Sequence record: SRR20825006_1097
Reading direction: 5' to 3' (one strand)
DNA: 52,958 bases
Under the pieces are notes generated by a model. The model searched no databases. It was given only the letters and a program-made list of their open reading frames with translations, and was not told where the DNA came from. Positions 3,870 through 36,446 of this stretch are shown here, piece after piece. The translations under genes and the position numbers were made by a program. Position 1 is the stretch's first letter. Each line of letters opens with the position of its first letter.

Positions 3870-4346
3870 TTAACCGATCCTTGCGCCTTCGCATTTGCCT
3901 TGCCGATGAACCTGATTGAGCTTCTCAACAAACGCTTTGAGTTCACCAGGCGAATAGCTGGATGGGTTGGGTATGCCCAATGAGGCGGCGATGAGTTCTG
4001 AGCAAAACCAGCGCCGATTGTCTTGCCGACGCCAGTTGAAAAATTGCGAAAAGATCAAACCGGCAAAGTCATATTTTGCGCCAAGAAACTGTTTGAAGAA
4101 TGGGGCGAGATCGCCCGCATACCATTCAACTTCAACAATGTCCCAATGGCCGGGTTTGAGAATGATATTTTTGACGCGCACGCCGCCATCCCGAAGGCTG
4201 GATGAGGTGCAGCACATAGAGCCATCAGCAAAGTAAAAGCTTGGCTCGGTGATCAACTCAACATGGCTATAAGGCGAACGGGTAACCAGGCGGATCAACT
4301 GATCCACCCATGTGCCTTCAGCCTTATAGAATGCCAGACACGCCAT
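3870..4346 (-). CDS. Phage protein, permuted papain-like (NlpC/P60-type) putative hydrolase
   Basis: His motif YSHVEL precedes Cys motif WFCSE; GAKYDF motif between. Confidence 0.65.
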   Translation of the reverse strand: MACLAFYKAEGTWVDQLIRLVTRSPYSHVELITEPSFYFADGSMCCTSSSLRDGGVRVKNIILKPGHWDIVEVEWYAGDLAPFFKQFLGAKYDFAGLIFSQFFNWRRQDNRRWFCSELIAASLGIPNPSSYSPGELKAFVEKLNQVHRQGKCEGARIG

Positions 4347-4348
4347 GG

Positions 4349-4753
4349 TCAGAACTGTGATGCCAGGGCAATGACCTCAGGTGGGCAGTCAGGCCAATTG
4401 GCGTCGTCGGTGATCACGGCGTTGGCGTCAGCTGCAAGCGTTGCAATATTTGCGCGCATTGCTGCGACCCAATCAATGGCCAGTTCCGCATTGGCCAGCA
4501 CGGCTTTTTCAGCCTCGGTTCGGTTGGCAGTAGTTTTACCGGAAATCACGGCTGAGGCAGCGGCCATATTCATTTGGCTTTCGGCATCGGCAATTGCGTA
4601 GATGCGGCGGCGGCATTCTTTTTTGACCCGATCAAGGCGATGCGCAGCTAGAACTTCATCAATCGCCGTTTGTGGTACACCAGCATTTAGCAATTCTTCG
4701 GGTGTCATGGCCTGATACCCAACACCGTTGTGTTCGAGAAAATCGATTTGCAT
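4349..4753 (-). CDS. Putative tail fibre assembly/chaperone protein
   Basis: Follows fibre gene; VKKECRRRI and C-terminal DDANWP..P pattern. Confidence 0.6.
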   Translation of the reverse strand: MQIDFLEHNGVGYQAMTPEELLNAGVPQTAIDEVLAAHRLDRVKKECRRRIYAIADAESQMNMAAASAVISGKTTANRTEAEKAVLANAELAIDWVAAMRANIATLAADANAVITDDANWPDCPPEVIALASQF

Positions 4754-18045: not shown

Positions 18046-18981
18046 CTAGGCGGCGTTGCGGATCAAAAAACCGGCCCGTTTGGCCACCACCAACTCTTTC
18101 AAACGCTCACCTGAACGCACAAGCTTGCCACCCGTCAGGCCCATATTCGCCGCAAGAGTGCCTGCAATCTTGTCGCCCAATTGCGCGGTCAAACCGAATG
18201 TGATGCCGCCATTGGTGTCAGCGGTTTGGTCAATAAACTGACCGCACACATGGTTGCCCCACACGCGCTGTAAAACGGGGTCTTCACCTGGACGATTAAT
18301 GTTCACCCGGCTTTCGCCTACCAGCACGCGCTTCACTTCCAACAGTTCAGCAAGCTGGGCTGTTGTGGCGCGGCCCTGATCGCCAGAATTGGCGTGCACC
18401 GCTTTCATGATTTTCGGGTGCTTGCGCAATGCGCGCCAAGCCATAAAGCCAAATTCGATTTGGTTGGGCTTTTGCCAACAAGTGGACATCAAATCTTCAA
18501 TAATGGTCAGCGGGTCTGAAGCAGGATCGCTGAAGAGGTCTGTGCCCGAAAGTGTTTCCACATGATCAGAATGATAATTGTTTGGATCGGTGAGCAACTT
18601 GGCCACCCGCACTTCGCGGTCCAACAACACAATATTGGTGGCACGTTCGGTGGCTTTCTTTTCCGGGTCATAGCCGCTTTTGCTGGCCGCCTCGATGGTG
18701 GCATTATCAAGCGGCACATCAATCCCGAAATCTTCGGTTGAGGCACTTTTTTCAGAACCTTCAATTTCAACCTGATTGGGAGAAGAGCGACGGCCAACGC
18801 GGGTATCAGGCAAGGTGAAGCCTTCAGCATCGTCATAGACTTGATATTTAAAGTTGGTGTTGCCAACAGGTACGCGCGGCAATGCCTGATCCGCAATCAA
18901 AGAATAATCGGGATTGCTATAAGCAATCGCGATGGAGGTGAGCGTTGGGCTTTCAACAAATTGTTCTGTTGCACTGGACAT
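18046..18981 (-). CDS. Major capsid protein
   Basis: P.LTSIAIAYSN...IADQALPRVPV; 311 aa after protease and cement genes. Confidence 0.88.
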   Translation of the reverse strand: MSSATEQFVESPTLTSIAIAYSNPDYSLIADQALPRVPVGNTNFKYQVYDDAEGFTLPDTRVGRRSSPNQVEIEGSEKSASTEDFGIDVPLDNATIEAASKSGYDPEKKATERATNIVLLDREVRVAKLLTDPNNYHSDHVETLSGTDLFSDPASDPLTIIEDLMSTCWQKPNQIEFGFMAWRALRKHPKIMKAVHANSGDQGRATTAQLAELLEVKRVLVGESRVNINRPGEDPVLQRVWGNHVCGQFIDQTADTNGGITFGLTAQLGDKIAGTLAANMGLTGGKLVRSGERLKELVVAKRAGFLIRNAA

Positions 18982-19443: not shown

Positions 19444-20544
19444 TTAGTCGGTAAGCCCGCGTTCTTTGCGAACGTGATCCACGGCGTCAGAGGTTGAAAC
19501 AGTGATGCCTTTTTCACTTTGCGCGAATTGATAGGCGCGGGCGGCTTGGGCAATGTCGCGCACATCATCTTTTGGCGTGTCGTCATCATCGCCGATGTCT
19601 TGTTCGCCAAACTCAACAATCTTGGGCAAACCGCTAAAAAGCTCTTTGGTCAAATCGACAAGGTTTTTGGTTTGCTCTTGGCCGGGCTCACCAAAAGAGA
19701 TTTCAGCATTGGCTTCTGCGCCAATACCATCCAGCAAGGCGACCAGCTGGTCTTTATGCCCACTTGGCAATTTGCCCTCATTGATCAAGCCATCCGCAAA
19801 AGACACATGTTCTTGATTGCGCAGTTTCGCCTCGCGGGCAGCAAGTTGCTGTTCACGCGTGGTGAGTTCTGTTTCGCGCGCGTCATTATTGTCGTTTGTG
19901 TTCGACATGGATTGATCCTCATTATGTTCAGAAAAACTTTTTGCTTCAGGCTCATTGCCTGCATCGTCGATCCAGTTGATTTGCCAATCGCTCAACACAT
20001 CATCCGCTTTTTCAACGCCATATTCGTCGATAAAGAATTCGCGGATTTTCCGAAAAAGCCGGGCAACGTCTTTAAAAGCGGGGTCGGCAAACTCAAAGGT
20101 CAAACATTCAGCATCGTCAGAAAAGCTGACCGGCTTTAAGCCCGGTACCGCCGGAGCCTTTGCCCCTAAAAAACCGATATGTTTGGGATAAAGCGCATCG
20201 CCAGCTGGGTTCGAGGAAGAGCCAGGGGCGAAAAAGCTCATTGAAATGCGTTTGAATTTCCCGCTGGTCACTTGGTCGGCAAATTGGGGCTCAAGTTCAC
20301 CAATATTGGCAACCAACCGCTCATTGTCTTGATCATAGGAAAAGCTTTGCACCCATCCAAAAGCAGGGTCATCTGTTTTGGGATGCCCAATAACAACCGG
20401 CACGGGATTGTTTTGTGGGTCATAGCGGTCAGCCAAATCAATCAAATCTTGTGAGGACGCGGTGAAGCTTTGACCGCCCATAGAGGTAAATGTGCCAGGG
20501 CGAAAAACTTCGATTGATTTGGTATCTGAATTTTTGTTCGACAC
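19444..20544 (-). CDS. Prohead protease/scaffold (Mu gpI equivalent)
   Basis: IEVFRPG, PVVIGHP, FKRISMSF, HIGFLGA..PAV.GL; GTG 20544 with GGAG upstream. Confidence 0.88.
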   Translation of the reverse strand: MSNKNSDTKSIEVFRPGTFTSMGGQSFTASSQDLIDLADRYDPQNNPVPVVIGHPKTDDPAFGWVQSFSYDQDNERLVANIGELEPQFADQVTSGKFKRISMSFFAPGSSSNPAGDALYPKHIGFLGAKAPAVPGLKPVSFSDDAECLTFEFADPAFKDVARLFRKIREFFIDEYGVEKADDVLSDWQINWIDDAGNEPEAKSFSEHNEDQSMSNTNDNNDARETELTTREQQLAAREAKLRNQEHVSFADGLINEGKLPSGHKDQLVALLDGIGAEANAEISFGEPGQEQTKNLVDLTKELFSGLPKIVEFGEQDIGDDDDTPKDDVRDIAQAARAYQFAQSEKGITVSTSDAVDHVRKERGLTD

Positions 20545-20608
20545 GCTTATGAGCTCCAACGTCAAAATGTTGGATTTCAAATTGTCGAAAAGGGGAAATA
20601 TCTGCGCC

Positions 20609-20619
20609 GGAACAGTTCC
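20609..20619. promoter_or_regulatory. Palindrome GGAACAGTTCC, putative late-activator site (Mu PI equivalent)
   Basis: 65 nt upstream of the protease start; same motif at 8438 and 29221. Confidence 0.7.
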
Positions 20620-20857
20620 AACTGATCAGGGGCGCAAGTTGGACCTATCTAGGCTGATTTTTGGGATAAAGGCAAGATTTTGAATGATGAAGGGTGACCA
20701 CACGCAAAAAAATGCGTTTAAATCAATTCTAACGCCCCTCTAACGGGGTAGATTGATATTGTTGCCGATGGTTGCCGCCAAAATTGTCTAGCAGGCCACT
20801 GTGAGGCGTTTATTTGGTTTTTGAATTGAGAGATGTTTTTGCGGATTGTTGTGATCA

Positions 20858-21670
20858 ATGATGGACGGGTTTAATTTTTGGATTGTTACGCTCAGTCCAT
20901 ATATCGGAGTGGGTCTTTTTCTTGATCTAGTTGTTGTAGCAAAACATCGTCATGCAATTTCGTGGTATGTTTTTGGCTATTCCGAAGCGGATACAACCAG
21001 ACTTGAACTCACACTCATGCGTGCATTGATTTCAATCTTTGTTAAATCAGGCTGGATCGAATTCTACAGAGTTTTAATTTATTCAATATTTTTTTCTGCG
21101 ATTTGTCTTGTACTGCTGGCAGTTAATTTCTTGGGCATCGGTCGTTTGCTGGCAGATAGAGAAATTCCATCGTTTAGCCTTGAAGATTTCTTTTCATCAC
21201 AATTCCTCATTGTATTACTGTTTATCTCAACGGTGACCGGCTTTGTCACTTCTTGGTTCGATTTTTTAAGTCTATGGCTTTCAAAATTTCTATTCGTAAA
21301 TAAATCGCCGCAATTTCCAAAGTCGCTTATGTTCCTTTTGATTGACGTACTTTGCAGTGTGGGCGTTGGCGCACTGCTGGTGTGGATAGTGACGAACCCT
21401 TCAGAGGGGGTGCGGTCTGTCCTTGAATTCATTTCCATGAAGCCTCAACTCGCAGTCTATTTGGCATATATAGCGACATTGTCTGCTCTGTTTTTTAGCA
21501 TCATTCAGTTGGTAATATTTGTAGTCGGGGCAATTTGTCGGATTTTGATCGGCATAACCAAACTAAACCAAGTTGTTTCTATTCACTCGCATGTTCATGA
21601 TTTTCCATTCACATATTTACTTCTAGTGCTGGGTGTTTTTTATGCTGTTAGCAAGCTTATCATCAGCTAG
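20858..21670 (+). CDS. Moron: polytopic membrane protein
   Basis: 270 aa with about 6-7 hydrophobic segments, AT-rich, opposite to the head genes. Confidence 0.8.
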   Translation: MMDGFNFWIVTLSPYIGVGLFLDLVVVAKHRHAISWYVFGYSEADTTRLELTLMRALISIFVKSGWIEFYRVLIYSIFFSAICLVLLAVNFLGIGRLLADREIPSFSLEDFFSSQFLIVLLFISTVTGFVTSWFDFLSLWLSKFLFVNKSPQFPKSLMFLLIDVLCSVGVGALLVWIVTNPSEGVRSVLEFISMKPQLAVYLAYIATLSALFFSIIQLVIFVVGAICRILIGITKLNQVVSIHSHVHDFPFTYLLLVLGVFYAVSKLIIS

Positions 21671-22178
21671 AGCGAAAGAAATTAACTAGTGTCATTTCGA
21701 TAATGGTTTCATCCTCCCGCCCCACTCCAATATAAGGCCGCGCCGGAATTGAAACCGATTTTACAAAGAACGGCCGGTTGGCAGATTTAGGACGTGGTAT
21801 GGCCAACGCTTTCGCACGAACAGGCTTGATGGTTGCTCCATATTGATGCACCAAAACCTTTGGATGGTTGAGATTAGTGCCTACCTCAGCTTTTTGGCTA
21901 TCGGCTTTAAAGTGGATCGAGCGGAACAACTCACCAGATTTGCGCAAAATGCCGGTCGGTGAACGGCCAAGGCTTAAGGTGAGGGCAGATAAGGGGGCCC
22001 ACTTCTCACCATCAGGCGATATTTGATCCAAAAAACGTTGGCTGGTTCGGTTGAATAGCGTCTGTCCAATAATGGTGTGAATAGCACGCCGATCTATAAG
22101 GCGTGATTGAATAGCTTCAAGTTCGAGGCTGAGCTGATCTACATCATATTTGACGTTTAGGGTCGGCAATATCGGCAT
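21663..22178 (-). CDS. Virion morphogenesis protein (Mu gpG)
   Basis: RFLDQISPDGEKWAPLS, ILRKSGELFRSI, VGTN, HQYGA, IPARPYIG; ATG at 22178. Confidence 0.9.
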   Translation of the reverse strand: MPILPTLNVKYDVDQLSLELEAIQSRLIDRRAIHTIIGQTLFNRTSQRFLDQISPDGEKWAPLSALTLSLGRSPTGILRKSGELFRSIHFKADSQKAEVGTNLNHPKVLVHQYGATIKPVRAKALAIPRPKSANRPFFVKSVSIPARPYIGVGREDETIIEMTLVNFFRSS

Positions 22179-22207
22179 TTGTATTCGTCCTTTGAAAGCG
22201 CTATATT
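22179..22207 (+). promoter_or_regulatory. Sigma70-type promoter pointing antisense toward the gpF 3' end
   Basis: TTGTAT (22179-84) - 17 bp - TATATT (22202-07). Confidence 0.6.
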
Positions 22208-22210
22208 GTG

Positions 22211-22326
22211 GGCGTGATGCCAGCTTGCTTGATGTATGGTGCTGCGGCGTTGGCGGCCCCACTAAAGATCAAGCCCGGTGGTTGTGGACACGCCTTAAGC
22301 AACCCATCACTCTTTCTCTTCTCGTT
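22211..22326 (+). ncRNA. Putative structured small RNA between gpF-PBECR2 and gpG
   Basis: Own promoter; nested stems GGCGTG/CACGCC, GCTTGAT/ATCAAGC, TGGTGCTGC/GCGGCCCCA; pyrimidine tract from 22311. Confidence 0.5.
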
Positions 22327-23590
22327 TATAAAGCAGAGCACCTTTGCGATATTTGGTGAGATAGCCAAAGTCTGGACGTTTGCCATTCTTGCGCTTGGGA
22401 TCAAATATGGTTTGCTGATGCCAACCTGCACTCGTCCAGGAAAACGAAGCAAATCCAGCTGCCGCTTCAAAATACCTCAAGTAGCGCCGCACCAAATAGG
22501 TTTGTTTTTTGGGGTTGGTGGCAAAATCGATCCATATTTCATCGGGATCAATCAAGGTGTCGGCCAAAAATTCAATGGCTTGCTCGCGACCCGATTTCTT
22601 GATTTTCAATTCGCCCGTATGCGCCCGAAACAATTCATCACTTACCGGGATCACATGACCTGCCTTGTCTCGAAACAGCCTTGGCACATTGATCGCCGCG
22701 CCAAATCTCGACAAAAACTTGGTTAGATAGTTGGCCTCATCATCACCTGACTGAAGCAATCTGGCTGTGCTTGGTGCGGTAGCTGGTGCCGGAAGCTGGC
22801 TTATGTGTTGAGTGATATTTGATGGTTTTAAGGGAACGCGCAATTCTTTTGGGATGATGCCATCGGCCCAGGTGCGCCCCGGCGCATAAGCCCAGCCCAT
22901 ATCGATGCCGACCGGATAATCCGTCCAATCATCTGTGGCCGGATCGCGTTGTTTCTCAAACCTAATTTTTGGCGCGTTGTCTGGCTCAGTTTTGCCCATT
23001 GCCTTTAAATCGAATTCTGAAACAGGCATCACGCCACACCCACATTTCCAGCCATTGGGTGGATAATAAGTGAGCCACCACTCCTCATCAGCGCGTAAAA
23101 CCATCCCATCCCAATGTAAATGCTGTTCGCGCCGATTGGCTGGAATGCGTTCAAGGCCATGAACATATTTCCAATAGGGAAATGCGGCTTTAACGGCGGG
23201 GTCTGTCATTTGCTTATACCGGCCAGCGGCGTAAACTGATTTCAGGTTTGTTTCATAAATGGTGCGGGCGCGCCAATCGCGGCCACCATTATAATCCCAT
23301 CCATGGCGCGCAACAATTTCATCAAAATGGTCAAGAAAGCCCATTTGATATTGCCCGTCTTTATCGGTCCACCCTTTAAAGGGCATGTTGTCGATTGATT
23401 TTTCAATGGCTGAATGAAAATCAGCCAACAAGGCATCGCGCTTGGCACCGGCCACCACAAATGCGCGATCATGGGCATGATGAAGGAGATCACTCCATTT
23501 GTTGGTGGGCAGATTGATTTTTTGGCGATGGAAATCCAACGCTTCAGAAAAAGGACCGAACCCGTCAGCAAAGGCAGTCTGGATTTTTAG
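22307..23590 (-). CDS. Mu gpF minor head protein with C-terminal PBECR2-like nuclease domain; no good start codon, probably reached by frameshift from the portal
   Basis: PFSEALDFHRQK, HDRAFVVAGA, YPPNGWKCGC (MuF); LADTLIDPDEIW..RRY..RKGALLYKR (PBECR2-like). First conventional start (TTG 23539) falls inside the N-terminal motif. Confidence 0.85.
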   Translation of the reverse strand, partial: LKIQTAFADGFGPFSEALDFHRQKINLPTNKWSDLLHHAHDRAFVVAGAKRDALLADFHSAIEKSIDNMPFKGWTDKDGQYQMGFLDHFDEIVARHGWDYNGGRDWRARTIYETNLKSVYAAGRYKQMTDPAVKAAFPYWKYVHGLERIPANRREQHLHWDGMVLRADEEWWLTYYPPNGWKCGCGVMPVSEFDLKAMGKTEPDNAPKIRFEKQRDPATDDWTDYPVGIDMGWAYAPGRTWADGIIPKELRVPLKPSNITQHISQLPAPATAPSTARLLQSGDDEANYLTKFLSRFGAAINVPRLFRDKAGHVIPVSDELFRAHTGELKIKKSGREQAIEFLADTLIDPDEIWIDFATNPKKQTYLVRRYLRYFEAAAGFASFSWTSAGWHQQTIFDPKRKNGKRPDFGYLTKYRKGALLYKREEKE

Positions 23591-25173
23591 TTTTTTTTTG
23601 AGCCACTGATGCCGGTGAGATCATAAATGTCACCGCGACCAGCTAGATCGCTCAGCGCAATCGCGTCTGCCAGATTGTTGCCCAAAGCATCAATCTTAAG
23701 GTCAGCTTGCGCCGCCAATAAGGCCTTTGAAGCTTCAGCAAATGAGTTGGTGTTATGCAGTCTGGATTTAAGGGTAGAAAGCCATTGCTCTACTTCAGGC
23801 GCATTTAGGTCGCTGAGCTGGGCAACAATATGCGCAATTGGATCATCATCACTGGCAAAGGCTGGTGTGTCCGTCGCAATCTTTTTGGATTGTGCCGGGA
23901 TCATCTCCACACCCAAAAGATCACCAAGCCAATCACTCACATTTTTCGGTTCAAAACCTTGGCCGCGCAAATCGCCAAGCGTTTTGATCGCGGCTTGATG
24001 GCTTTCTTGTCTTTTCTTTTTTTGCTCTTCTTCTTTGTCTTGGTTGAGGGGGCGAGGACGCACCAAAGTTGGTGGTGTCGCGTTTGGCCAATTGGCCTCG
24101 CAAATCCATTTGATCAACGTATCGTTTAGGGTTGCGCAAAGTTGGTCGGCATCATCGTCCACTAGGCTTTCTGTTTCTTCAGCATGGGTTTCTGAAGCAG
24201 CGCGTGCGCCTTGGCCCTTCACACTTGTAGAAAGCGTGCTGCCCAAAACAACTTCGGCTGTTTGCTCGTCCCAATAGCGGCACCATTCTTCATGGCCCGC
24301 ATTGCCCGCGCGTTGCGCTTCAATGAAATCAACTTCAGTGCCAATGGGCGCAACCAGGGCACCATTTTGCACTAGACGCCGCAACAGCCCCAATAAGCGA
24401 TCCTGTTCATCATTGGATGTGCCAGCTGGATAACGGCCGAATGGTGTGGGCGATGCAAACTTTTCCAAATGCACCAACCAAAAACTTGCGCCCTGGCGTT
24501 TAAACAAAACGTGCCAATACAGCACTGAACCTAAGCCTAGACCATATGGATTGTTGCCTTCAGCTTCAAAGCGATGGACGATGAATTTGCGTTCAGGCAA
24601 TTCAATGCCCTTAATGCCGCTTTCGCGCGTCAAAAGGCGTGGCTTCCAATCCCGGTCAAATTTGAAGCGTGCCGGGTCATGTGATTTGATGAAGTGTGGG
24701 GCGATCCAACCGCTCTTATTGCGATGCCAAACAATCTCAGAAACCGCATAACCCTTCAAAATAGCTTTGAGCAGTGACTTGCAGATTTGATCGAAGGGCA
24801 GCTCATTTAAAATGTCATTGATATGATCAGCCACATCAATATCTATCTGCTCTTCACTTGCTGGAAGTAAATCCCATTCGCGCTTGGTGAGTTTGCCAAT
24901 TCGTTTGTTAAAGGCGGCGCGTGCGCGGCCATCCTGTAAAATCTCATCATAGAGCTTTAGGCCAAGGTGACGCGCTTTGGACTTAAGGGTTGGGTCTTGT
25001 GGCTCCAAAACGTCGGAATAAAAAGGAACGGTCACATCATTTTTCGCCGTTGCAAACAGTTCGCCGCCCTTGCGCGGCAAATAGGTGCGTGGGCGGTTGG
25101 CTTTGGTATTGCTGGCAAAGTCGATATGTTGTGTTTGAGCTTTTTTGGTGCGGCGTCTTGATTTACGGCTCAT
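23587..25173 (-). CDS. Portal protein (DUF935, Mu gp29)
   Basis: KGYAVSEIVW, NPYGLGL, EKFASP, VLGSTLST, C-terminal LAGRGD. Confidence 0.93.
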   Translation of the reverse strand: MSRKSRRRTKKAQTQHIDFASNTKANRPRTYLPRKGGELFATAKNDVTVPFYSDVLEPQDPTLKSKARHLGLKLYDEILQDGRARAAFNKRIGKLTKREWDLLPASEEQIDIDVADHINDILNELPFDQICKSLLKAILKGYAVSEIVWHRNKSGWIAPHFIKSHDPARFKFDRDWKPRLLTRESGIKGIELPERKFIVHRFEAEGNNPYGLGLGSVLYWHVLFKRQGASFWLVHLEKFASPTPFGRYPAGTSNDEQDRLLGLLRRLVQNGALVAPIGTEVDFIEAQRAGNAGHEEWCRYWDEQTAEVVLGSTLSTSVKGQGARAASETHAEETESLVDDDADQLCATLNDTLIKWICEANWPNATPPTLVRPRPLNQDKEEEQKKKRQESHQAAIKTLGDLRGQGFEPKNVSDWLGDLLGVEMIPAQSKKIATDTPAFASDDDPIAHIVAQLSDLNAPEVEQWLSTLKSRLHNTNSFAEASKALLAAQADLKIDALGNNLADAIALSDLAGRGDIYDLTGISGSKKN

Positions 25174-26797
25174 TGCCTGATGTCCCGAATAAATTATGGC
25201 TCAAGCCAGAAACAGATTTGATGGTATTTTCATTGATGGTGGTGCCCGCATAATGAAGCGTCTGGCTCCAAAGCATTTCCAAACAGTCTGGCCCATCATC
25301 ATGATCGGCGTTAGGGAACTGTTCCAACTGATCCAACAGGACACGTTGCGAGGTGTGAAACCGGATTTGCCCACATGCAGTAGGTGGCTGAAGCCGCTCG
25401 ATGCGCAACAATTTGTCGGCAATTGGCACAACAGGAATGCAAGGCATGGCCAAATGCGCTTTTGCTGCTTCTTTCATCAGAGTTGTGCGCAAAAATTCTT
25501 GAAACTGTACCGCTTCAACAAACCATAGTTGGCAATTGTAAAGCCGCTGCATGGCAATGGCGTCAGCAATAATCACATCGGGCAAGCGGCGGCGAATAGA
25601 CGCTTCAACAACATCTAATATGTCGTCGTCGCGGTCATAGCCGCCAATCAAAATGGCGGATGGATCACGATTTTTATTGTTCTTGCCAAGGGAAGGATCA
25701 ATTGCGCCAAAGTACAGCCAATTGCGCTTTTTCATCACCCAATAATGTTTGGTTTGGAATTTATTGTCATCAGAGACGGGCTTGTTTTGATATTCGCTTT
25801 CAAAGGCATTGTGATCGCCCGCGCGCTCTTTCATCAAAAACAAAAGGGTGTGATTGGCGGGCCAATTGAGCGCTGCGCCTTGATCCATTGCGGATCTGTT
25901 GCGCTGATAAAACACATCCGCTTCAGGCTCACCTTCATTAAGATAAATCTCTTCCCATTGATCCCAAAGGTCCATGCGGTCCGGCCAATTGATCAGGGCG
26001 CGGAACTCAACAGTTTTCCATTTAGGCTTTTTGGAAAAGCGCACGATCACCGCATCAAAGTGCAAAACGGTACCGGCATATAAAACGTCCATAGACCCAT
26101 CAGGTGGGCCAAGCTTTAAAACGGCTTTTGCGATCCAGTTTTCCAACTTCTGTCGCTGCTTCGGGCTGGCGACATTTTCATCATTCTCAATGTCATCCAA
26201 AATGATCAGGTCAGGGCGATAGGGGCCATGCCGCCGACCACGGATTTTCTTGCCCGTACCAAATCCTTCAACCCGCACATTGTTTTTGGTGACAATATCC
26301 CCTTCACGCCAAAGCCGCCCTTGGCCTGCAATGTCGGGAAAGTCATATCGAAGCCGGGGATTGGCTTCCAGCTCTGCTTTAAGAGCTTCAAGCATGATGG
26401 AGGCTTGTTCAAAGGCATCCATGATGAGGCAAATATAATGCTTTAATCCGCACACAATGCACCAAAGCGGAAAGATCAAACTGAGGTGAGTGGATTTGGC
26501 CGAACTGCGCGGCGCGATCACCAACCGGTATTGCCCATTCTTGTCCTGCACAATTTGCGGCAAATTCTGATAAAGATGGTTGTGCAGTTCGCTTGGGTCC
26601 ATGGTGAGGTAATGCGGGAAATATGTTTCCGCAAAAAAGCGATAGCCCGTTGCCTGGTCTTTAACATTTTGAAGGCGTTCTTTGCGCAAATTCGGGTCAG
26701 CGGGAAAGGCGTCCACTTCCAACTCAATTTGCTGGCGAAACATGGCCGCCAGTTCATCAATTGATTTTTTAAACTCGCTGGGTTTGAGCGGCTTCAT
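25163..26797 (-). CDS. terL: Terminase large subunit
   Basis: APRSSAKST (Walker A), IILDDIE (Walker B), AIDPSLG, HDDGPD nuclease motifs. Confidence 0.95.
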   Translation of the reverse strand: MKPLKPSEFKKSIDELAAMFRQQIELEVDAFPADPNLRKERLQNVKDQATGYRFFAETYFPHYLTMDPSELHNHLYQNLPQIVQDKNGQYRLVIAPRSSAKSTHLSLIFPLWCIVCGLKHYICLIMDAFEQASIMLEALKAELEANPRLRYDFPDIAGQGRLWREGDIVTKNNVRVEGFGTGKKIRGRRHGPYRPDLIILDDIENDENVASPKQRQKLENWIAKAVLKLGPPDGSMDVLYAGTVLHFDAVIVRFSKKPKWKTVEFRALINWPDRMDLWDQWEEIYLNEGEPEADVFYQRNRSAMDQGAALNWPANHTLLFLMKERAGDHNAFESEYQNKPVSDDNKFQTKHYWVMKKRNWLYFGAIDPSLGKNNKNRDPSAILIGGYDRDDDILDVVEASIRRRLPDVIIADAIAMQRLYNCQLWFVEAVQFQEFLRTTLMKEAAKAHLAMPCIPVVPIADKLLRIERLQPPTACGQIRFHTSQRVLLDQLEQFPNADHDDGPDCLEMLWSQTLHYAGTTINENTIKSVSGLSHNLFGTSGNEP

Positions 26798-35621: not shown

Positions 35622-36446
35622 TTAAATCCGTCCGGTGCGTTTTGCCCAAGCCATGATTTTCACCTCATGGACTGCAAAAACATTCTCGAGCTCTTCATCC
35701 TTAAGGCCGCGCAGCGCCTTGTTGATGGAGGCATATTTCTTTTCAAAGTGAGAGGGCAGGCGGCCCGCTTCCAAAAGCAACATTGCGTCGGCAACATTGG
35801 TGGCTTTTGGCGGTGTGCTGAACAGCACTTCGCAAATCTTTTTCTGCATTGCAGGCTTTTGTGCCGCAAGTTGTTGTAAACCCGCTTGATGGTCCGCCAG
35901 CCAAGTGCCTTGGATTGTCGCTTTTGAAGCTTCCGATAGCCCTTTCCAAATGGCCACTGCATTGAAGAAAGACCGACGAGATAAGCCAATCTGATCTAGG
36001 ATTTCAGACCGAAGTGCAAAAATTGCACTTCGGTCTTCGATGGTCAGGGAGGTTTGCTTGTCACCGCCTTTTTCAAGTTCGGGGTGCAGCGCTTTATATG
36101 CTTGGTCCAGTTCGAACAGATGCTGAGCACGGTCCAGGGCGTTCAGCTCATTACGCCCAATATTTTCAATCACCTCTTCAAGCCGCGCTTCATGCTCATT
36201 GCTGGCTTGAGATAGCCGCGCCGGAATATGATCACGTTCCAAGGTGATGAAGGCCGCAAGGCGGTGATGGCCAGAAACCAAGCGATAGGCGTTGCCATCC
36301 GCAATTACACTAATCGGATTGATCAGGCCGCTTTGCTCAATCATCCCGGCAAGCGCTTCCACCCAATGTTCATTGAGTTCGCGGGCGCGGTTCTCGGGTA
36401 TGGTAATCTGTTTGATCGCAATATCTTGAATGGCTTGTTTAGGCAT
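35622..36446 (-). CDS. ParB N-terminal domain protein
   Basis: GLINPISV, LVSGHHRLAA, ENIGRNEL, then HTH IGLSRRSF. Confidence 0.88.
   Translation of the reverse strand: MPKQAIQDIAIKQITIPENRARELNEHWVEALAGMIEQSGLINPISVIADGNAYRLVSGHHRLAAFITLERDHIPARLSQASNEHEARLEEVIENIGRNELNALDRAQHLFELDQAYKALHPELEKGGDKQTSLTIEDRSAIFALRSEILDQIGLSRRSFFNAVAIWKGLSEASKATIQGTWLADHQAGLQQLAAQKPAMQKKICEVLFSTPPKATNVADAMLLLEAGRLPSHFEKKYASINKALRGLKDEELENVFAVHEVKIMAWAKRTGRI

Follow-up and report, generated by a model that had tools for sequence, protein, structure and literature searches.

The stretch of DNA analysed here, referred to as the window, comprises 52,958 nucleotides of sequence record SRR20825006_1097 and carries on its minus strand the head module of a Mu-like prophage, as assigned with Pfam and PHROGs (Table 1). 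The MuF protein of this module is 410 aa long, and PF04233 and PF18810 are the only Pfam domains in it. Its stop codon reads tca on the plus strand (22307-22309), and the next ORF on the same strand is the gpG-like gene, with no small immunity ORF directly after MuF. The gpG start codon (cat, 22176-22178) has a ribosome-binding site, AAGGAC, 8 nt upstream on the minus strand. A gpG start at the in-frame GTG at 22262 was rejected, as it has no ribosome-binding site and the PF05069 profile fits the ATG at 22178, beginning near residue 13. The gap between MuF and gpG spans 22179-22306 (128 nt), and a comparison of this gap across related loci revealed no conserved ORF within it. Two coding candidates, a 172-aa plus-strand ORF (22208-22726) and a small ORF inside the gap, were set aside as not conserved when the gaps were read by eye; the open frame that crosses the predicted RNA of the window meets a stop after about 29 codons in the related locus L006, also as read by eye.

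Table 1. Genes of the head module and predicted elements of the MuF-gpG gap, in window coordinates
Feature	Position	Strand	Basis or remark
Large terminase	25163-26797	-	
Mu-type portal	23587-25173	-	
MuF (gpF-like minor head / DNA pilot protein), C-terminal PBECR2	22307-23539	-	PF04233 2.1e-11, PF18810 2.7e-28, phrog_220
gpG-like virion morphogenesis / tail completion protein	21663-22178	-	PF05069 2.8e-25, phrog_26
Head protease	19444-20580	-	
Major head protein	18046-18981	-	
-35-like hexamer TTGTAT	22179-22184	+	Sequence; abuts the gpG start codon
-10-like hexamer TATATT, preceded by GC (GCTATATT)	22202-22207	+	Sequence
Predicted small RNA, about 105-115 nt	22213-22325	+	Positions of the -10 and the U-rich tail; A1 alignment with L006 and L031
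P1 closing stem, GTGATG / CATCAC	22214-22219 / 22305-22310	+	3' arm overlaps the MuF stop codon
P3 outer stem, GCTTGAT / ATCAAGC	22227-22233 / 22268-22274	+	Hairpin 22227-22274
P3b inner stem	22238-22245 / 22253-22260	+	Apical loop GGCGTTG, 22246-22252
P2 hairpin 22280-22304	22280-22285 / 22299-22304	+	Loop holds conserved GACACGCC
U-rich tail (TCTTTCTCTTCTCGTTT), inferred termination zone	22311-22327	+	T/C-rich; antisense to the last MuF codons

The earlier note had described the region 22179-22326 as a narrow gap with a promoter motif, stems and a pyrimidine tract, and every one of these motifs lies where it had been placed. The spacer between TTGTAT and TATATT is 17 nt long. The motif matches 8 of 12 consensus positions, the threshold of the scan tool used being 9 of 12, and scores p = 0.010 with a position weight matrix (PWM); the scan tool called neither a promoter nor a terminator inside 22179-22326. 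Folding of the 148 nt gave a z score of -0.87 on the plus strand, with 34 of 200 shuffled sequences folding equally well, and -0.11 on the minus strand. The predicted RNA would begin at about 22212-22216 and end within the U-rich run, and with these predicted ends it would reach across the MuF stop codon and cover roughly the last 15-20 nt of the coding region. At its 3' end the window offers only the closing stem of a three-way junction and the U-rich tail, with no canonical terminator called. By itself, the window is weak evidence and does not rise above chance; the signal stands above chance because relatives keep the same layout.

Database comparisons of the gap were negative. Rfam 15 gave no match in the gap at E <= 10, and none at the gathering score in 20 related loci; blastn with the MuF-gpG DNA found no match among phages, and a degenerate DNA pattern derived from the P2 hairpin region had no match in viral contigs. 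Tandem Repeats Finder (minimum score 30) returned no rows for 21900-22600. A relative about 94% identical over 21727-24198 occurs in two seawater RNA libraries (X2 and X3) and in one biofloc DNA run. In X2 and X3 this relative lies inside contigs of 12-18 kb with even depth, and these contigs, which give neither strand nor transcript ends, may represent DNA; no separate small contig was seen in the runs. The match limits 21727 and 24198 are identical in the three runs, suggesting that they are mosaic borders of the head module.

Related loci were collected with the MuF protein as query, yielding 9 loci from species genomes, 8 from IMG/VR and 4 from metagenomes. A further source was a set of 401 genomes belonging to the same order as the closest relative; 21 of these matched at E <= 1e-40, in 24 places. 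Thirteen identical or near-identical copies were removed by hand (L002, L004, L005, L010, L016, L018, L023, L024, L025, L026, L028, L030 and L033), and L021, which had no MuF match on re-scoring, and L022, which is Mu, were set aside, leaving a final set of 39 non-duplicate loci, the window included. Thirty of the 39 were classed as "PBECR2-type", meaning that their MuF matches that of the window to the C-terminal end, Pfam having been run on a subset. Against phages, the MuF query retrieved 357 records, mostly of Pseudomonas and Ralstonia phages, 128 of which cover at least 80% of it. The MuF-gpG gap measures about 90-140 nt in most of the loci. In L007, a Roseomonas metagenome-assembled genome, it is 372 nt long (4192-4563), and a small additional ORF separates gpG from a weak promoter-like site on the antisense strand.

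A putative promoter facing the operon is present, at the level of motifs, in the relatives. With a strict pattern (TTGNNN-N16-18-TANNNT, at most 270 nt after the MuF stop), antisense matches were found in 19 of the 39 loci and sense matches in 3, and 18 of the 19 antisense matches have a spacer of exactly 17 nt. Elsewhere in the loci the same pattern occurs 37 times in 227,052 nt-strands, corresponding to 0.044 expected matches per locus and strand. When sites were scored with the PWM, built from consensus frequencies, against 1,222 background windows, the best antisense site reached p <= 0.05 in 23 of the 39 loci, compared with 3 for the best sense site. The antisense positives comprise 19 of the 30 PBECR2-type loci and 4 of the 9 others; the remaining 11 PBECR2-type loci lie above p 0.05. 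In the 23 PWM-positive loci the -10 is located 64-114 nt from the MuF stop. Two cases were also called on the antisense strand by the scan tool: in RR1-B the gap site is the sole promoter-like site of the 4.2-kb locus and is followed by a 9-pair terminator, and L032 carries an antisense TTGAAA-17-TATATT, matching at 10 of 12 positions, together with an 11-pair terminator.

Reading of the gaps by eye showed that most loci have a sense-strand AATATAG (CTATATT when read antisense) 20-35 nt upstream of gpG, and in many loci the gpG start is overlapped by the -35 (CATTTGAA). Start-codon context does not account for the motif, because the 16-17-nt spacing is retained in L015, L038, L040 and L045, where the -35 is clear of the gpG ATG, and because L008 and L044, near-misses in motif and spacing, have theirs placed alike.

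The other end of the cassette shows polarity too. In 31 of the 39 loci, a perfect hairpin starts no more than about 22 nt from the MuF stop. An antisense 3' T-run, scored as at least 4 A in 9 nt on the sense 5' side, accompanies this hairpin in 20 of the 31, versus a single locus with a sense-side 3' T-run of at least 4 T. In L006 and L031, T-rich runs immediately follow P1.

The fold of the predicted RNA was examined in two small alignments of 3 and 5 distinct rows, for which the shuffle controls ignore relatedness. Alignment A1, consisting of the window, L006 (Maritalea) and L031, supports a four-helix fold (P1, P3, P3b and P2) of 29 pairs with 97.6% of 83 cells paired. Eleven pairs are changed on both sides, a number reached by 0 of 500 shuffles and compared with 0-3 in slid controls. 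P1 has 8 pairs with 100% of cells paired, one of them changed on both sides (U-A to A-U in L006), whereas P3 and P3b contribute 4 and 3 such pairs, and P2 contributes 3 of its 6. The loops GGCGWTG (P3b) and GACACGCC (P2) are kept in all three sequences. P1, P3 and P3b are present in the single-sequence minimum-free-energy folds of all three RNAs; P2 appears in those of L006 and L031, while the window's has an alternative hairpin there. These comparisons reorder the stems proposed earlier. The stem GCTTGAT/ATCAAGC is confirmed as P3, but its supposed nesting partner GGCGTG (22211-22216) / CACGCC (22289-22294), although present in the window, is not kept in L006 and L031, and CACGCC is instead placed in the conserved P2 hairpin loop. 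Of the fold regarded as competing, GTGATG/CATCAC turns out to be the conserved closing stem P1, and L006 and L031 do not preserve TTGCTT/AAGCAA.

In a second subfamily (L032, L033, L034, L001, L003 and L004), a terminator follows a 5' hairpin whose inner stem is of the GGCC type. RNAalifold on the MAFFT alignment found 5 of 14 pairs compensated. With MAFFT alone the outer stem fell out of register, and the sequences were consequently fitted to a covariance model. The resulting alignment A10 (5 distinct rows) comprises 21 pairs with 96.2% of cells paired; 12 of the pairs are changed on both sides, a number that 0 of 500 shuffles reached. A refined model, R2, finds the gap on the same strand in L011 (E 1.2e-5), RR1-B (0.0014), L042 (0.0036) and L041 (0.02). 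Neither R1 nor R2, the two covariance models, reached the subfamily of the window, and since R2 does not find the window's gap, the family appears to diverge fast. A weak R2 match elsewhere in the window (36002-36076, plus strand; 14.1 bits, E 0.18) is probably due to chance. Read by eye, the main hairpin carries an apical loop of the GGYG type in different subfamilies, namely GGCGWUG in the sequences grouped with the window and GGUGCG or GGCGCA in those grouped with L032; the loops of RR1-B, RcapMu and RcWaterboi are similar. The second loop of the window group contains the complementary CGCC, so that a loop-loop contact with the GGYG loop is possible.

Several measures of the fold favor the antisense strand. 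Paired cells number 81 of 83 on the antisense strand versus 76 of 83 on its complement in A1, and 101 of 105 versus 91 of 105 in A10. G.U cells in the two alignments together amount to 16 on the antisense strand versus 1, with 5 of the 16 belonging to one invariant pair. Among the 31 predicted RNAs, the mean fold z is -1.60 antisense and -1.01 sense; the antisense strand is the more stable in 21 and the sense strand in 10, the latter including L008, L011 and the four non-PBECR2 loci. A gyrase-site-like DNA element, by comparison with the G-I gap of Mu, was considered and dropped, since covarying stems with a G.U polarity indicate RNA.

The comparison of loci demonstrates, at the level of predicted elements, an antisense cassette of promoter, hairpins and terminator with covarying stems and plus-strand polarity. 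The gap most likely holds a small, folded, non-coding RNA gene directed against the late genes, a putative cassette common to alphaproteobacterial phage relatives. The earlier proposal of a structured plus-strand RNA, about 100 nt long and with its own promoter, is borne out as a prediction by the promoter motif, terminator polarity, covariation and G.U polarity in these relatives.

The cassette is present in RcapMu, with a 92-nt gap and TTGAAA-17-TATATT, and in RR1-B, RcWaterboi and EBPR siphovirus 4, each with a 103-nt gap. Pseudomonas phage JBD25 encodes PBECR2 (E 1.4e-22) yet has an F-G gap of 1 nt; in Ralstonia phage YO047_1 the gap is about 48 nt long, contains one hairpin and lacks the promoter pattern; and L017 has neither a MuF-gpG gap nor a cassette. 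The MuF tails of L044, L045, L047 and L052 gave no PBECR2 match at E <= 1 and an hhalign probability below 1%, and these loci keep the gap, with promoter p values of 0.02-0.03 in L045, L047 and L052 and of 0.32 in L044. The cassette thus tracks phage and host lineage rather than PBECR2, being absent from JBD25, YO047_1 and L017, with its promoter-like site found in L045, L047 and L052. L048, with a short MuF that has no C-terminal extension, has a 4-nt gap, and in Mu (L022), whose F carries MuF_C, F and G overlap by 4 nt. Within the sample, a loose link between the cassette and MuF proteins with some C-terminal extension is conceivable. The non-coding spacer of the Mu head operon lies one gene further on, in the G-I gap, which is 197 nt long (L022 3860-4057) and is annotated with the strong gyrase site.

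Conservation of layout, spacing, polarity and covariation across many lineages makes it barely credible that the gap is an ordinary, functionless spacer with a chance hairpin, unremarkable as the single-sequence statistics are. It is also quite improbable that the conserved element belongs to the sense strand, either as a terminator or attenuator coupled to a late promoter of gpG or as a hairpin that processes or stabilises late mRNA, with the antisense promoter as a by-product. The hairpins exist equally in the sense mRNA, where the fold is the more stable one in 10 of 31 loci, the adjoining G-I gap of Mu holds a late promoter beside its gyrase site, and AATATAG might serve as a -10 without a -35 in an activator-dependent late promoter. 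This reading, however, leaves unexplained the T-runs of the hairpins (1 of 31 sense versus 20 of 31 antisense), the 16-to-1 G.U polarity and the scarcity of sense promoter-like sites (3 of 39 loci), and on the sense strand a TTGNNN spaced by exactly 17 nt would be meaningless. An RNA that acts in trans, as a prophage-borne "moron" whose loops target host mRNAs or other phage mRNAs and whose location between F and G is incidental, is unlikely. The self-contained build of the predicted cassette, with a host-type promoter close to consensus and a terminator of its own, would suit such an RNA, as would apical loops that are conserved over variable stems and the GGYG-type loop that, read by eye, recurs across subfamilies. 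However, the junction at which the cassette lies is the same throughout the loci, suggesting a local role, and its primary sequence diverges fast between lineages, as seen in the failure of R2 to find the window, unlike most seeds of trans-acting sRNAs.

The earlier note had seen in the RNA a substitute for a MuF-toxin immunity gene, that is, an antitoxin or decoy which would be bound or cut by the predicted PBECR2 RNase and would thereby protect the producing or lysogenic cell in the manner of type III systems. The RNA gene adjoins the 3' end of the PBECR2 coding region, its conserved loops could form a protein-binding surface, and PBECR domains are predicted RNases or RNA binders according to the accessible part of Iyer et al. 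(PMC5512222). Moreover, in this sample short MuF proteins (L048, Mu) go without the gap, whereas most extended MuF proteins of either kind have it together with a promoter-like site. This hypothesis nevertheless appears highly improbable: PBECR2 occurs in JBD25 with a 1-nt gap, YO047_1 and L017 lack the cassette, the promoter-like site is found in L045, L047, L052 and weakly in L044, whose tails are unlike PBECR2 (hhalign below 1%), and the RNA has no tandem repeats and lies on the opposite strand, unlike type III systems. Of the functions proposed earlier, antisense control survives in the interpretation favored below, while the decoy or antitoxin against a virion-delivered RNase found no support. 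A related idea, for which there is very little probability, is that the RNA is a dedicated partner of the C-terminal effector domain of MuF, holding a virion-borne RNase or RNA-binding domain inactive in the producing or lysogenic cell or being loaded with it; if true, it would represent a single-copy, antisense-encoded analogue of type III antitoxins and a new phage protein-RNA immunity pair.

The literature on these domains bears on the same question. In the accessible part of the study by Iyer et al. (PMC5512222), Mu F orthologues usually end in a PBECR domain, which is inactive in Mu and elsewhere predicted to be an active RNase that is injected with the DNA, and no toxin-immunity module is described for PBECR-type F. 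According to the portion of Jamet et al. 2017 (PMC5576092) consulted, a small ORF (<150 aa) lies downstream of 89.4% of 191 toxin-type MuF genes, mainly in Firmicutes, and proteobacterial MuF proteins mostly carry extensions of unknown domain. The MuF of the window resembles these polymorphic toxins in combining a MuF N-terminal domain with a C-terminal extension, but differs from them in being followed by gpG as the next ORF. The present comparison also corrects the view that MuF proteins with a PBECR2 tail need an immunity factor.

Collectively, the RNA looks like a regulator of late genes rather than a toxin antidote, and, by analogy with known phage RNAs, it is probably a cis-antisense sRNA of the late operon similar to OOP. 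Under this interpretation, the polymerase of the host would transcribe the RNA in the lysogen from a sigma-70-type promoter whose -35 is set against the gpG start codon, beginning near 22213. The transcript would fold into a three-way junction of P1, the long P3/P3b hairpin (GGCGUUG loop) and P2 (GACACGCC loop), and would end in the U-rich tail over the MuF stop codon. Over the stretch between F and G it would be fully complementary to the late mRNA, and pairing of the two may create double-stranded RNA for RNase III, while the head-on promoter may interfere with weak late read-through, both by analogy. Leaky late expression, including that of MuF-PBECR2, would thereby be kept low, or the F:G ratio would be set, and strong late transcription would occlude the antisense promoter. 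The gpG ribosome-binding site would be left uncovered, because the 5' end of the RNA lies about 35 nt upstream of the ATG. The putative terminator, consisting of the closing stem and the U-rich tail, is unusual and counts against this interpretation.

Lambda OOP RNA is a cis-antisense RNA that spans the 3' end of cII and the cII-O gap and acts on cII, damping or tuning its expression. Like the predicted RNA, OOP is short, has its own host-type promoter and is read against an operon; OOP also has its own terminator, a feature predicted for the relatives with an antisense T-run, while the window offers the closing stem and the U-rich tail. The two share no likeness in sequence or structure, the RNA predicted in the window being a three-way junction, unlike OOP, and the role of RNase III being assigned to it by analogy; OOP also belongs to an early region, whereas the predicted RNA lies in the late head operon of a Mu-like phage. 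The type I antisense RNAs of prophage-like elements in B. subtilis (RatA/txpA and SR4/bsrG) have a 3' overlap with their targets. Convergent transcription and a 3' overlap with the mRNA of a possibly harmful product would be shared with them, but the type I partner is a small hydrophobic membrane peptide, in contrast to the 410-aa virion protein MuF, the overlap with coding sequence would here be only about 15-20 nt, and the cassette also occurs beside MuF without PBECR2. The type III system ToxI/ToxN likewise has a structured RNA next to a predicted endoRNase gene. However, ToxI consists of tandem direct repeats and lies upstream of the toxin on the same strand with a terminator between them, whereas the predicted RNA has no repeat array and lies downstream of MuF on the opposite strand, and MuF, with PF04233 and PF18810 only, is not of the ToxN/AbiQ/CptN kind, whose endoRNases process and bind the RNA.

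In temperate phages, antisense RNAs have been described from early and immunity regions, and the predicted cassette is, on present sequence comparisons, a member of the phage cis-antisense RNA class in a new place. As far as the searches reach, there is no prior description of a conserved structured antisense RNA in the head-assembly operon of Mu-like phages, since neither an Rfam family nor a paper was found. A search for RcapMu together with sRNA yielded no paper. The prophage goes unmentioned in the main text of the R. capsulatus sRNA study by Grull et al. 2017 (PMC5546546), which places its sRNA list in the supplements, and the accessible part of the transcriptome paper on Fc02, a Pseudomonas phage of the JBD25 kind, contains nothing on the MuF-gpG junction. 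If expressed, the RNA would be among the few prophage transcripts made in a lysogen and would offer a handle on the silencing or balance of the late genes, including that for an injected predicted RNase. The occurrence of the cassette in the cultivable RcapMu (Rhodobacter capsulatus), RR1-B and RcWaterboi makes these predictions directly testable.

Some further features of the head module were observed. One His of PBECR2 varies among loci. The MuF ORF of the window opens with TTG at 23539, 47 nt past the portal stop, and the RcapMu record remarks on a poor MuF start and on a +1 frameshift that may occur where the portal gene ends; the earlier note may have alluded to this frameshift. Between gpG and the head protease, the window has about 1.08 kb (20581-21662), a gap of only about 210-275 nt in RcapMu, RR1-B and JBD25. 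Anti-CRISPR genes of Pseudomonas Mu-like phages are carried at this place. The window has there a 270-aa ORF on the plus strand (20858-21670), convergent with gpG with an 8-nt overlap of their ends and without a Pfam or PHROG match, which may be an accessory or counter-defence gene.
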